From Mobula hypostoma (lineage: Eukaryota): a DNA stretch of 64,000 bases. The notes beneath the pieces are model-generated. The model was not told where the DNA came from and did no database searches. It saw only the letters and a list, made by a program, of their open reading frames with translations. Location of the stretch: the NCBI RefSeq assembly GCF_963921235.1, contig NC_086108.1, positions 80,540,001-80,604,000 on the forward strand, in the 5' to 3' direction. A program made the position numbers and the translations under genes. Below are positions 12,013 through 17,323 of this stretch, piece after piece (position 1 is the stretch's first letter; each line of letters opens with the position of its first letter).

Positions 12013-14000
12013 TGGGGAGACATGTCCTGCAATATCATAAAACGTTCAATGATGCTGGACTAACCTCAGGTGTACCAAGTTGAATCGTGCCCAAAAAGCC
12101 CAGTCAGTTTACCCGTGGGGGGTGATTCACCCAGAAATGATCGCCAATATGATCAAACAAGAGTAATTCGGAGTTTATGCTTGATTTATGTATAAAAATA
12201 TTAACAAATACACACAATTGTTCAAAATTCAAAGAACGTTATCAAAGTACATATATGTCACCATATACAACTGAGATTTCTTTTCCTGTGGGCATACTCA
12301 ATAAATTCAAAGAAATACAATAGAACGCAAACTCATTATTTTTGCTCTTTTTGCACAACTTATTTAATTTAATTCATAATTATTGTAATTTATAGTACTG
12401 TACTGCTGCTGAAAACAACAGATTTCATGACAAATGTCAATGAGATTAAGTTTGATTTTGATTCTGTTTCCTTTTTTTAAAAAAAACAGCACCTACATTT
12501 GATCTATTTCAGTTCATGCAAGTATGTCCTTTAGATTTTATGCTTTAGCAAATGTTGAAAGGGTACCCATACCCTGAAAATAAATTAATATTTAATTGTT
12601 TATTGCTAAGTCTGCTGTCTTAGTTGAAGAACATTGCTTATACTTTCTGTTTCCTTATGAATGAAAAAGATTTGAAATGGAAATAACCTTGCTCAAGTGC
12701 TTCAAGAATCTTGCCTGGTAACTCTATGGTATACCAGCACAAAACAGAAGAGCGGTGAAAAGAAATCCGAGTTTAAATCAGTGGTGAGAAAAATAACTGT
12801 ATCATTGAACATAATATTTAAAGTTGCAATATTTCATGATAATGTGGGTCGCACCACAAATCTACCATGCACTAAATAAGTAAGTGTTGATTCCGTGAGT
12901 TTGGGCTTTCATCAAAGATAGACTACGACAATCATCATTGTTTAGAAAATCGGGGGCATTTAGGTACTGGATTCCCATCCATCAGTTTAAATAGACAAAA
13001 ATGTAAAGCAAAGCTGCAGAAGCTGAAGATATAAAATAGAAACAAAAGATGTTGGAAACACTCTGCAAGTCAGGCAGCATTTGTAGAAAGAGGAGCAGAA
13101 TTAACATTTCCTGCTGAAAGCCCTCTGTCACTCCTTATACTTCACAGTAATCAGCTCCAAGGCATCAATTTCAGTAAGTGAACCATGTAGGGTACAGGAT
13201 GAGGTAACTGGATGAAAATCGAGTGTATGACAGTGGTTTTCATACATAGGTCAATTTTTGTGGTCCATGTGTTTTATTTAATTTCTCATTTAAAATGTTT
13301 CTTTTTGTTGTAGTGATTTGACAATGCAGAATGAAAAACGTAATACAATGTTAATTTGTGGAATATTACCGTTGAAAATAGATTTGAAAAAACACTTGAT
13401 TGGATATCTAGAAGTCAGTTGTGTGGGTGCAGCTTGTATAATATATTGAGAGCAGCAAATGTGGCCCATTTCAGCAATTAGTTTGAGGTCCAGTGGAACA
13501 GCAATACATGTGGGAAAGATATTCTGACTTTCTAATCTCTGCCTCAGATAAATTTACATATATCTATCATCCTTCAGCCTCCAGGGAAAACAAACCCAGC
13601 CTATCCAATCCCATAGCTAAAGTTCTCTGATCCAGGCAACGTTCTGATGCATCTCCTCCGCACTCTCTCCAGTGCAACCACAACCTTCCTTTAGCATGGA
13701 AACCAACACTACACACAATACTGTGTGCATTCTAACCAATGGTCACTCCAAGGTATGCGCTTGCCCACACGCACACACATCGTTTGCGACTCGCGCACAA
13801 AGGAATTTAAACTGCGCAGAAAAGGTTGTCACCCTCTACCTCATCTCCATGTTAAGTATATTTTGTAAATGTACACAATCACATTTCCTTTACCATTTTC
13901 TGATGCGGACGGTGTTGATAACGTGGAGTTTGTGATGATTTGCCTGCAGGTTTTGGAAATGGCTTATCTATACTGTTTTTATTGAAGAAATTAATCAGTG

Positions 14001-14578
14001 AGAACTTCCGGTTTGGTCGCCGCCCGCTCAGCCATGGTTTTCGGTCGGGCGCTGGATCCTCGGAGAGATTCGGCGGGCGCCCGGCACTCAGCCGGGGTCT
14101 GTGGTCGAGTAGTCGGCGACTTGGGCTGGATCCCCCACCGGACTTAGTCTGGTGGGGGGGGTGTGAGGACACCCAGCAGGACTGAAAAAAACAAGATCTG
14201 ACAAAGGCCGGATGAGCTCCTTGTGAGACAACGGCCATCTTCCGTGGAAGAGATTAAAGCCTCACCACGTATCTACGAATCGTATGCTATGCACCTAGTT
14301 AGAAGAGATATGATGAACTTGGGCACTGCACTGTGAGTGCCTGGACCTGCCCAAGGCCTCCACCTAAGGAGCCGAGTTCGAAGAAGCGGCCGCGACTGGA
14401 ATCCGACACGGCCTCGGGCTCGAGTTTGGGAGGGGGGCAGCGCCGGGCGGTGCCAAGGCGGCCAGCGAGAACAAACTGGAAGAGAAGCTGTACTTGGTGC
14501 TGTTGCAAGATCGAAGAAGATGGAGGTGCATAGCCGCCAACCCCAGATTCAGGACGGCACCCACTGACTGACTGACTG
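14001..14578 (+). mobile_element. GC-rich chimeric retroposon with RTE-type 3' end and (TGAC)n tail
   Basis: Perfect 8-bp direct repeat aatcagtg at 13993-14000 and 14579-14586. 3' end reads QDRRRWRCIAANP (RTE ORF C-terminus-like) followed by cactgactgactgactg. Confidence 0.72.
14327..14506 (+). pseudogene. ZFTRAF1: Captured, rearranged fragment resembling ZFTRAF1/CYHR1 coding sequence
   Basis: 14327-14361 tgc act gtg (ag) tgc ctg gac ctg ccc aag gcc tcc = [11 protein letters not shown]. 14366-14506 = KEPSSKKRPRLESDTASGSSLGG(frameshift)AAPGGAKAASENKLEEKLY(L)VL. Recalled vertebrate CYHR1: PPKKRLR...[26 protein letters not shown]. Confidence 0.75.
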
Positions 14579-15527
14579 AATCAGTGCGCACGTTATTGTC
14601 ACTGGGCAAAATTTGCACAGCAGATTTTTGGGCACACTGGTCATAACAAATTAGAGGGAGCATTGATTTTAACCAGATTTTTGTAAGCTTGCAACATTAT
14701 ATCCCAACTTTTATATTTCATACCTATGAAGACATGCATGCCATGCACCTCCTTCACCCACTTGTTTGTGTTGCCATTTTCAAGAAATTATGAACTTGAA
14801 CCTCAAATTCTGTTTTCCAAATTCCTTAGCATCTCATTTACTGTCTACGTCCTACCCACATCTGACAGGGTCATAGAGTCATAGACTCATAGACTTCCCA
14901 AATTGTGTCACCTTGCAGTTGTTAGGGTTAAATTCCATCGAGCAACACTCTACCCAATTTTCAATCTGATTTACATTGCTGTAACCATGAACAATCTTCC
15001 TCACTGTCCCATACACCAATTTTCCATGAACATACCAATCATTCCACCTACATTCAAATTCTAACCATTAATGTAAATCACAAAACAAGGCTTCCATCAC
15101 TGATCCCAAAGGCACACCAGTGATTATATATTTTCAATCAGGAAAGCAGACTTCCATACTCTGCCTCCAGTTTGTCATTTTGTCTTGAACACAAATAGTC
15201 AGTTTGTCTTGGATCCTATGTCCCTTAACCTCTGGACTAACCGTGTATCTGGCCTATATTTTCTCCTTTCTCAGGGATAAGTGAAGGCACACTATGAAGA
15301 GCAGTAGAGTTATTATACATGTCACTAATATTTACCCCTCACTCAAAAAGTAATTCTTTGGGCTTTATAATCACAGCCATTGAATGACACTTTAACAAGT
15401 AGTTAGCTTCATAATTTAGGGAATATTACCGTGGTTGAAAGGCGAGCTGCGTTGTTACAATAAGGTGCCCTTATAGAGCAGCCTTATGCTGCAGAATAAT
15501 TACTGAAGCTGCTTCACAGAGATATAA

Positions 15528-17323
15528 TGTGTGAGCCTAAAAAAATAAAGATAGAAAGAAATTTGGGAGCAGACCCAAGTGCAAGACACAGACACTGACG
15601 TACAGAGAACTGGATTGGACTAGGCTTAGGGACGGGACAGGACACAGACTTGGAGCTGGGACAGGAATACAGGCTTGGGCTAGGACTTTGGCTAGGAAAG
15701 TGGGACCAGGACAAGGAACTGGGAACTAGGAGCCTAGACCTGGACTCCGAGCCAGATACTGGACAAGGACCCAGAACCTGAGTCTTGACTCAGGCTCAGA
15801 CCCCGGAACTAGGCGAGGACATGACAAGGCTTGGGTTCTTCGAGGTTTGGGTATGGACTCCGTGCCAGAGACTGGGCAAGGACCCAGAACCTGGGTTTTG
15901 ACTCAGGCTCAGACTCCGGAACTAGGCGAAGACATGACGTGATCTTTGGAGATAGGAACCTTGGACCGAGGACTGGACACTCGAAGCCTTAGTTTAGAGC
16001 ATGGGAACATGGATCTTTGGACTTGAGAGACAGGAACATGGGACACAGAGCCAGAACCCCTCCTTGGGAACAGCACATAGGGCCAGGACTCATACACAGA
16101 ACACAGAGCCGGAACCCCTCCTTGGGAGCAGGACATAGGGCCGGGACTCATACACAGAATGCTGAACACGACAAGATGGTTCTCAAAAAAAGGTAGCAGC
16201 AAACGGCTGGACCTACCTAGTGAAGGCGTGGACACAGAGACGGTTCCCAAAACAAGGTAGCGGCATACGGCCGGACCTACCTAGCGAAGGCGTGGACACA
16301 GAGACAGTTCCCAGCACAAGGTAGCAGCAAATGGCCAGACCTAGCTAGCGAAGGTGTGGACACAGAGACAGTTCAAAACAACGATAGACAGTTCCTTATC
16401 TAGACACAGCATGGCTCCGGTCTTGCTCCGGCAGTAGAACTTGACAGTGAAACAGGCAAGGCTTCAGAAGGAAGGGGAAGGGAAGGGAACAGTCCAGCCT
16501 CAGGGTAACGGCAAAGACAGCCTGGCTTGCCCAATGGAGGCAAGGACAGGAAGGGACAGATCCAACCGCAGGGTAATGGCAAAGACAGCTTGACTTACCT
16601 CACGGAGTCGAGGACAGGATACTGACAAGATGAACCAGCACCCACACTCGAACCCAGGGCCACTTATATTCCCCGCCCCAAGACGAGCATCAGGTGCCTA
16701 TGATTAAAGGCTGATTTATACTTGTGCGTCAACGCGACGCCATAACCTATGCAAGTGGCTTATGTGCATTGTGAGCATTTATACTTGTGCATTGGTGTGT
16801 CTGCATCACTGCACAATTCAGGCATGTTGTGCATGCGCACATACCTGCCTGTGCAAGGCTTCATGGTCATGGTAGTCTTTCTCAGGGTAAACAAGTTTAA
16901 AGCGAGCATCTTTTCTCGTAAAAGTGAAATGCGTCCCCCATAATTTTGGAGGTCTGTAAAGCTTTATGGAAAGCATTGCAGCCAGAGTTCCTTCCCTGCC
17001 CTTCAGTCGCCCAATGGGAAGCTATTGCAGCGTAGGAGGAAATGCGATGCTACCAAGCGGACCAATCACAGTTGTTGCGGTCTGCGTTGCTGCGATGCGC
17101 AGTTACATTTTGGGAGAGGTGCGCGTCAGGCTACGGCATAGGGATCTGTGTAGGCACTGTGTAGGGTTTGTGGCGACGCCGTACCTACGGCGTTGAGTTG
17201 ACACAGAAGTATAAATTAGCCTTTAGCCCAACTGAAACAAGGGACAGCCGGTAGACCCGGAGCCTGGAGTCCACGGACCGGACCGTGAACTGGAACGCGG
17301 ACATCACGGACCGGACCATGACA
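15528..17323 (-). mobile_element. Solo-LTR-like element with internal tandem duplications
   Basis: tg..(15528) to ..catgaca (17323). gatata occurs on both flanks (15521-15526, 17324-17329; one extra base on the left). TATA-like box on the minus strand at ~16663-16670. Same family as 1-948. Confidence 0.72.
16707..17223. mobile_element. MITE, probably PIF/Harbinger-like, nested in the LTR
   Basis: ~35-bp imperfect TIRs aaggctgatttatacttgtgcgtcaacgcgacgcc / ggcgttgagttgacacagaagtataaattagcctt; TA (or TWA) on both flanks. Confidence 0.85.

Follow-up and report, generated by a model that had tools for sequence, protein, structure and literature searches.

An RTE-like bipartite retroposon in Mobula hypostoma with an exactly permuted piece of ZFTRAF1 exon 1 and a probably ADAR-edited hairpin

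Introduction

Pack-type DNA transposons (Pack-MULE and similar elements) carry a gene fragment enclosed by terminal inverted repeats. Bipartite non-autonomous RTE elements, among them Bov-A, RTE-N2_Lch, RTESINE1/2 and WALLSI3, retain, as outlined by Kojima (2018, PMC5786205), only part of a LINE 5' UTR together with the last 70 nt or so of its 3' end and a microsatellite tail, and have no coding capacity. The pseudogenes derived from circular RNAs, in the outline given by Dong et al. (2016, PMC4897178), place non-colinear host exon sequence in the genome, with an exon-exon back-splice as their junction. In Rous-associated virus and in avian leukosis virus, nearly half of the adenosines in an inverted repeat were reported in summary to be changed from A to G in laboratory virus isolates (PMC12925331). 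Circular DNAs of the germline are, according to a published summary, mostly about 180 or 360 bp long; they show enrichment for 5' UTRs, and their ends are joined through microhomology (PMC10581685). In addition, non-LTR reverse transcriptases are described in brief as carrying out serial end-to-end jumping in a processive manner (10.1101/2021.04.30.442027).

The window analyzed here, a stretch of 64,000 nucleotides from Mobula hypostoma, contains an insert that can be set beside these systems. Like the bipartite RTE elements outlined by Kojima (2018), it combines a LINE 5' UTR part with an extreme LINE 3' end and lacks coding capacity; unlike those described there, it has a piece of a host coding exon between the two LINE parts and a new, A-to-G-converted fold-back at its 5' end. 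Similar to the circRNA-derived pseudogenes it holds non-colinear host exon sequence, but its junction lies inside exon 1, 2 nt short of a clean donor join, and the exon piece, which makes exactly one turn, has become a constant part of a family that spreads by itself. The hyper-edited inverted repeat of the avian retroviruses, as summarized in PMC12925331, is the nearest precedent that we found for the editing of the hairpin; in our case, however, the changes would belong to the germline-fixed founder of a non-LTR family. With the germline circles of about 180 bp, as characterized in the summary of PMC10581685, the exon piece shares its size, its origin from a 5' exon and a possible 3-nt microhomology, whereas it is known from genomic copies and its junction, read literally, has no microhomology. 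The likeness to Pack-type transposons is confined to the window locus, where a gene fragment does lie between terminal inverted repeats, although the cargo has a duplication and a family of its own and the surrounding miniature inverted-repeat transposable element (MITE) shows no sign of moving it. We describe the retroposon as a bipartite RTE-like element that contains a host exon piece in exact permutation, together with a hairpin probably written by ADAR.

Our main reading, to which we assign a probability of roughly 0.75, is that the insert is a copy of a non-autonomous retroposon in which part of a LINE 5' UTR is combined with the 75 nt at the 3' end of the same LINE, with a permuted ZFTRAF1 cargo and with a likely ADAR-edited hairpin, and that it landed once in a MITE. 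In the literature, covered at the level of listings and abstracts and with few subscription papers, no report was found of ADAR edits fixed in a retroposon master, which is weak evidence of novelty; the family itself may already be catalogued in Repbase or Dfam.

Results and Discussion

A retroposon nested in a hAT-like MITE

The insert occupies positions 14001-14578 of the window (578 bp; all retroposon features are given on the plus strand) and is flanked on both sides by AATCAGTG, at 13993-14000 and 14579-14586. An earlier, sequence-only reading of the window had described a CpG-rich insert bounded by this exact repeat and had called for a search for empty MITE copies with a single such site. 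These copies were found and, since the octamer occurs in them only once, the repeat represents a real target-site duplication. The insert is rich in GC and CpG (GC 0.54-0.63, as compared to about 0.37 in the flanks), and the family majority sequence aligns from 14006 onward, leaving five extra bases (14001-14005) between the left duplication and the common start of the family.

The surrounding element (13737-14665), which is split by the retroposon, ends in 15-bp terminal repeats (13737-13751 and 14651-14665, mismatched at 3 of the 15 positions) and is itself bordered by the 8-bp duplications ATTCTAAC and ATTTTAAC (13729-13736 and 14666-14673). Its empty length is about 343 bp. A search of the organism's own genome indicated a large family, with the best 40 of 2686 candidates scored; of 29 other copies, 23 had both terminal repeats, and an 8-bp duplication with at most two mismatches accompanied 13 of the 23, compared to 0.08 in shuffled pairings. 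Short terminal inverted repeats, an 8-bp target duplication and many copies mark the element as a hAT-like MITE. Longer members of the MITE family (L042, L046, L048, L051, L052, L059 and L060) measure 580-813 bp between their terminal repeats and have an inner segment at the place where the window's copy took in the retroposon. The MITE in turn interrupts a minus-strand reverse-transcriptase frame, which we take to be CR1-like from its motifs, between residues 169 and 173 of a related open reading frame; protein-level comparison assigns the downstream part of the split frame to 13622-13723 and the upstream part to 14668-15196. The terminal repeats, the 8-bp duplications and the split frame confirm the nesting of the insert in a hAT MITE in CR1 that had been proposed from the letters of the window. 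A nucleotide search for the CR1 flanks among the fetched loci returned no locus matching both sides. Elsewhere in the window, a purine-rich stretch at 15741-16374 contains tandem repeats of 113, 58 and 64 bp.

The sequence-only reading had further suggested that the MITE may spread the captured exon in the manner of a Pack-type transposon, and the insert does lie in an intact member of this large MITE family. However, MITE flanks were seen around the retroposon in none of the 29 other best copies and in none of 80 sampled copies, the insert was present in none of 29 other MITE copies, and the composite 3' junction between MITE and insert had, with two mismatches allowed, a single match in the genome, namely the window. 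Several composite copies at different sites, in which the cargo moves together with the terminal repeats, were not encountered in these searches. Moreover, a contig of organism B (run X5, window 13964-14145) spans the same MITE-insert junction, so that the nested insertion is probably one old, inherited event shared with organism B, which could make it useful for dating. Mobilization of the exon by the hAT MITE as Pack-type cargo is accordingly highly improbable, and the seat of the insert in the MITE appears to be a one-off accident, incidental to its spread.

Independent mobility of the retroposon family

A search of the same genome with the insert gave 1607 candidates, the best 40 of which, all scored, were near full length; the 39 besides the window showed 86-89% identity. 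The permuted internal junction of the cargo had 387 exact matches genome-wide (control, 0). Since only 13 of the 30 best copies fit this junction pattern, the family can be estimated, roughly and by extrapolation, at about 900 copies. The dispersal of the captured exon through the genome had thus been foreseen correctly in the sequence-only reading, but not the carrier, which is not the MITE.

For a closer analysis, 80 of the first 100 junction matches listed were sampled. The 3' end was intact in 77 of these copies, the 5' ends were variable, and an exact flanking duplication of 7-13 nt was present in 34 copies, compared to an expectation of 1.2 and a maximum of 6 in 200 shuffled pairings. 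A fixed 3' end, variable 5' ends and flanking duplications are marks of target-primed retrotransposition. Given these duplications of its own, the retroposon, dispersed and flanked by target duplications of variable length, spreads by its own retrotransposition, independently of the MITE. The sampled copies diverged from the family majority by 3.4% at non-CpG positions; among copies, CpG sites had diverged by 18% versus 3% elsewhere, a decay six times faster, and this loss fits methylated, decaying DNA. The element was also covered by contigs of four other organisms, and its internal junction was bridged by contigs in organism E (X12) and in organism B (X10 and X20). The founder-derived family, with its hundreds of copies, is common to several species.

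Both ends of the retroposon derive from one resident LINE

At all 30 loci compared, the tail of the insert, QDRRRWRCIAANP followed by (TGAC)n, matched the end of a resident LINE with 89-99% identity, and positions 14504-14578 correspond to the 3' 75 nt of this LINE, including the microsatellite. The view that the insert is a LINE-tailed retroposon that has kept LINE ends and is RTE-like was upheld. Upstream of the cargo, positions 14130-14324 align to the LINE 5' UTR with deletions of 7 and 10 nt, stop before the LINE coding region and are without any A-to-G change. LINE-type tails were found at 128 places excluding the element itself; all 30 that were fetched share upstream sequence, and 18 LINE-type 5' ends were recovered. 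Two of four extended LINE copies run for about 3.2 kb and match both the 5' part and the tail of the element. In keeping with the length of about 3.3 kb, the single endonuclease and reverse transcriptase frame and the microsatellite tail expected of the parent of such a bipartite element, these copies encode an endonuclease and an RVT_1 (reverse transcriptase) domain, and most of the best relatives of the LINE protein are single chains of about 900-980 aa that contain the two domains. Hence the 5' part and the extreme 3' end of the retroposon come from the same autonomous LINE, whose interior is missing. A guessed pattern in which the LINE frame starts directly after the 5' part had no matches, and the real LINE continues with more UTR at this point. 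The junction pattern of the element was matched 387 times and the LINE tail pattern 128 times, two patterns that are unequally sensitive. A SINE with a tRNA-, 5S- or 7SL-derived head was rejected, as an Rfam scan of positions 13000-15500 gave no match at E up to 1 and the LINE 5' UTR accounts for the head.

The parent LINE likely belongs to the RTE clade. Named matches to the protein read 'Craniofacial development protein 2', a label that we take to be typical of RTE/BovB-like proteins. Those best relatives of the LINE protein (L104:2811-4493) that are named belong to invertebrates and reach no more than about 45% identity; because of these invertebrate relatives the question of a horizontal transfer of the LINE arises, within a thin sampling. 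Two further observations concern individual LINE loci. L115 and L121 have additional sequence in common (88% identity) about 180 bp upstream from the point at which the LINE copies jointly start; it represents either an extended 5' UTR or a repeat that lies upstream of both. L084 and L087 (G000:C2, 23.09 and 25.19 Mb) share, at positions 564-1573, 1 kb at 98% identity that ends in a short LINE tail, either because the tail is carried inside another unit or through a local duplication.

A fold-back hairpin with one-strand A-to-G changes

The 5' end of the retroposon (14008-14129) is a fold-back hairpin, whose right arm is composed of two LINE 5' UTR pieces joined across a 98-nt deletion and whose left arm is the reverse complement of the right. 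In the family majority, the first 130 nt or so form 56 pairs with a folding energy of -108 kcal/mol (z -7.9, 100 shuffles), and the fold of 28 full-length copies averages -77 on the same scale. The hairpin is worn in the window's copy, which alone folds at z -1.7, and, like the circular permutation of the cargo, the A-to-G-converted hairpin was absent from the sequence-only account. None of nine folded LINE 5' ends shows the hairpin. Three LINE copies (L103, L119 and L123) contain an inverted segment as in twin-primed insertions, and the hairpin may have formed by the same process.

When compared to the LINE, 15 of the 23 parental adenosines in the hairpin are changed to G, as opposed to none of 103 elsewhere in the element (P 5e-14). 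This count leaves out two A-to-G sites, one in the hairpin and one in the tail, which were attributed to CpG decay of the LINE reference; including the tail site gives P 6e-13. The loop and right arm contribute 12 of the changes (among 18 adenosines) and the left arm the other 3 (among 5), and the hairpin differs from the LINE further by one A-to-T, one T-to-G, one G-to-A and one CpG-related T-to-C change. At the changed columns the LINE copies are unanimous for the ancestral A (T for the left arm), with 4-15 copies each and with only 4-7 copies covering the 5'-most columns. The order of events can be read from the pairing. A T stands opposite the new G at thirteen of the 15 changed sites, the remaining two being unpaired, and in 13 of 15 G-T pairs the G is at a changed site. 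Because the new Gs face T in the opposite arm, the A-to-G changes postdate the fold-back and did not pass from one arm to the other.

The changes are fixed across copies, lie on the sense strand only and are found only within the hairpin. At changed non-CpG sites, A was seen in 12 of 547 copy cells, which equals the background rate of G-to-A decay (145 of 6803, 2.1%), and the changes were therefore already present in the master copy. Only one of 80 copies has at least three A residues at the 15 changed sites. No older, less edited subfamily was found among copies with LINE-like or gene-like diagnostic bases, and a search for an unedited or partly edited intermediate gave, at two mismatches, four matches, all of them ordinary copies (one duplicates L007).

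One-strand A-to-G change that is confined to a duplex and leaves G-U pairs is the expected outcome of ADAR activity followed by reverse transcription. The hairpin shows such a footprint, with a one-strand A-to-G cluster restricted to a segment that forms double-stranded RNA and with the partner base unchanged, so that A-U pairs become G-U. The A-to-G cluster is consequently best read as a likely case of ADAR hyper-editing that was reverse-transcribed into the master before amplification. Error-prone reverse transcription, GC-biased conversion between the arms or descent from an unsampled LINE subfamily would account for the same cluster without ADAR. Such explanations gain from the thin LINE coverage of the 5'-most sites, from the failure to find an intermediate and from the neighbor preference, which is not significant: a G precedes 5 of 15 changed and 3 of 4 unchanged stem sites (P 0.26), which for these few sites is in the direction expected from the deficit of G 5' of edited adenosines noted for ADAR in summary (PMC3197674). 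They are nevertheless unlikely, as the changes stop at the edge of the hairpin (0 of 103 outside) and are limited to the sense strand; moreover, arm conversion would restore Watson-Crick pairs, whereas G-T pairs remain at 13 of 15 sites, and from a parent with G at these sites the opposite arm would have received C in place of T.

The cargo is an exact circular permutation of a ZFTRAF1 exon-1 piece

The two peptides noticed in the insert, KKRPRL...ENKLEEKLY and one of 11 residues, occur in shifted frames and both match exon 1 of ZFTRAF1 at G000:C5:228.09 Mb. Exon 1, which is CpG-rich and ends in KASVYQ followed by a splice donor, agrees with the ZFTRAF1/CYHR1 proteins of skate and sawfish; exon 2, which follows at a distance of 91 kb, shows 99% identity to them. 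The earlier assignment of the fragment to ZFTRAF1/CYHR1 is confirmed by these matches. In Pfam, exon 1 had no match and exon 2 only weak RING matches. Within the retroposon, the first cargo piece (14325-14366; hereafter piece B) encodes the 11-residue peptide and represents 40 nt from the end of exon 1, identical at 39 of 40 positions between family majority and gene; it ends 4 nt short of the splice donor and has a 2-nt insertion in the window's copy. The second (14367-14503, EGPSSKK...LYSVL; piece A) represents the 138 nt located immediately before piece B in the gene, with 136 of 138 positions identical, so that the 178-nt cargo differs from the gene at 3 positions in total. The halves are swapped, the gene's last 40 nt standing first and the preceding 138 nt second, and in the gene the end of piece A adjoins the start of piece B with neither gap nor overlap. 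The cargo is therefore an exact circular permutation of a 178-nt piece of ZFTRAF1 exon 1, and the exact single turn is a rare, clean footprint of a circle-like capture.

In principle, the permutation could also go back to a colinear cargo that was first duplicated in tandem and then trimmed at either side. The master lineage does have small deletions of 4, 7 and 10 nt, but exactly one unit would have had to survive two independent trims, and the unpermuted, gene-order junction has a single match in the genome, in the ZFTRAF1 gene itself, which makes this route very unlikely. Two other candidates were rejected. A single crossover guided by 11 nt in which the LINE UTR resembles the point where the cargo was opened would require a UTR stretch that the element does not have. 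As to a canonical circRNA-derived pseudogene, the internal junction falls 4 nt before the donor of exon 1, and two more bases would give a donor-to-AG join; all copies, however, lack those 2 nt, a search for the intact back-splice donor join returned 0 matches, and the would-be acceptor has a poor context without a pyrimidine tract.

All three cargo junctions, read literally, are without microhomology, and the cargo is sense-oriented and wholly exonic. Because of this orientation and content, the end near the donor and the blunt joins, we favor capture from an RNA template and consider it moderately probable. The exact single turn would be explained if an RNA circle was opened once, or if one RNA was cut once and its two parts were swapped. 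Capture at the DNA level is a substantial alternative, though we regard it as the less probable of the two. In that case, a nucleosome-sized DNA circle of about 180 bp from the ZFTRAF1 CpG island, opened once, would have served as filler in the break that deleted the LINE interior, and the steps that concern the hairpin, its editing and the amplification would be unchanged. A DNA circle likewise accounts for exactly one turn without gap or overlap, and the cargo length of 178 nt (180 with the two missing nucleotides) coincides with the size peak that the summary of PMC10581685 gives for germline circular DNA; the source exon is CpG-rich, and AGG stands at both ends of the 180-bp version as a possible 3-nt microhomology. 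However, it would then be a coincidence that the cargo is in sense orientation, that it is wholly exonic and that it ends 4 nt before the splice donor; the AGG reading requires a further 2-nt deletion, and the two LINE-cargo junctions are blunt with nothing lost from the circle. There is only a small chance that the cargo was captured by some other route, neither from RNA nor from a DNA circle.

A possible origin of the master copy

Taken together with the favored RNA template, the master copy could have arisen as follows, with the steps of capture, fold-back and editing being reconstructed and no intermediate seen. A LINE reverse transcriptase would have jumped end to end from the LINE tail to a once-cut ZFTRAF1 exon-1 RNA, either an opened RNA circle or two swapped fragments, and from there to the LINE 5' fragment. 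An inverted duplication of the shortened 5' end would have given rise to a long double-stranded RNA, in which ADAR would have deaminated most hairpin adenosines; inosine, read as G during reverse transcription, would then have entered the master copy, which was presumably amplified to the estimated 900 copies. The capture of the cargo could have come before or after the inverted duplication and editing. In each round of copying, the LINE protein likely acts on the non-autonomous retroposon in trans.

A more far-reaching proposal, which we offer as speculative and rather improbable as a whole, is that the founder arose from two RNA-level accidents, a once-opened exon-1 RNA circle and a germline-fixed ADAR-edited hairpin. 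Under this proposal, inherited G-U pairs would pre-edit the hairpin, leaving four A-U pairs, and would let the element escape both editing and double-stranded RNA sensing and outgrow its parent LINE. If true, RNA editing would be a heritable source of successful mobile-element variants. If the ADAR reading of the hairpin holds, the family would represent a multi-species record of A-to-I editing that was made heritable in DNA and amplified hundreds of times. The ancestor (the LINE), the substrate (the fold-back) and the product can all be read from the genome, which makes this reading of the hairpin directly testable.

The hairpin may also be reflected in the truncation points of the family. 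Among the 80 sampled copies, 5' ends cluster at family positions 1-7 (15 copies), 26-30 (15 copies; far above chance, P 1e-9) and 90-100 (13 copies). A separate subfamily of copies that start at 19-37 was considered and rejected, the best P value being 0.02 over about 540 columns. The second and third clusters, which correspond to about 14031-14035 and 14088-14098 of the window, flank a run of four G-U pairs in the hairpin, and this position hints at cleavage or stalling near that run.
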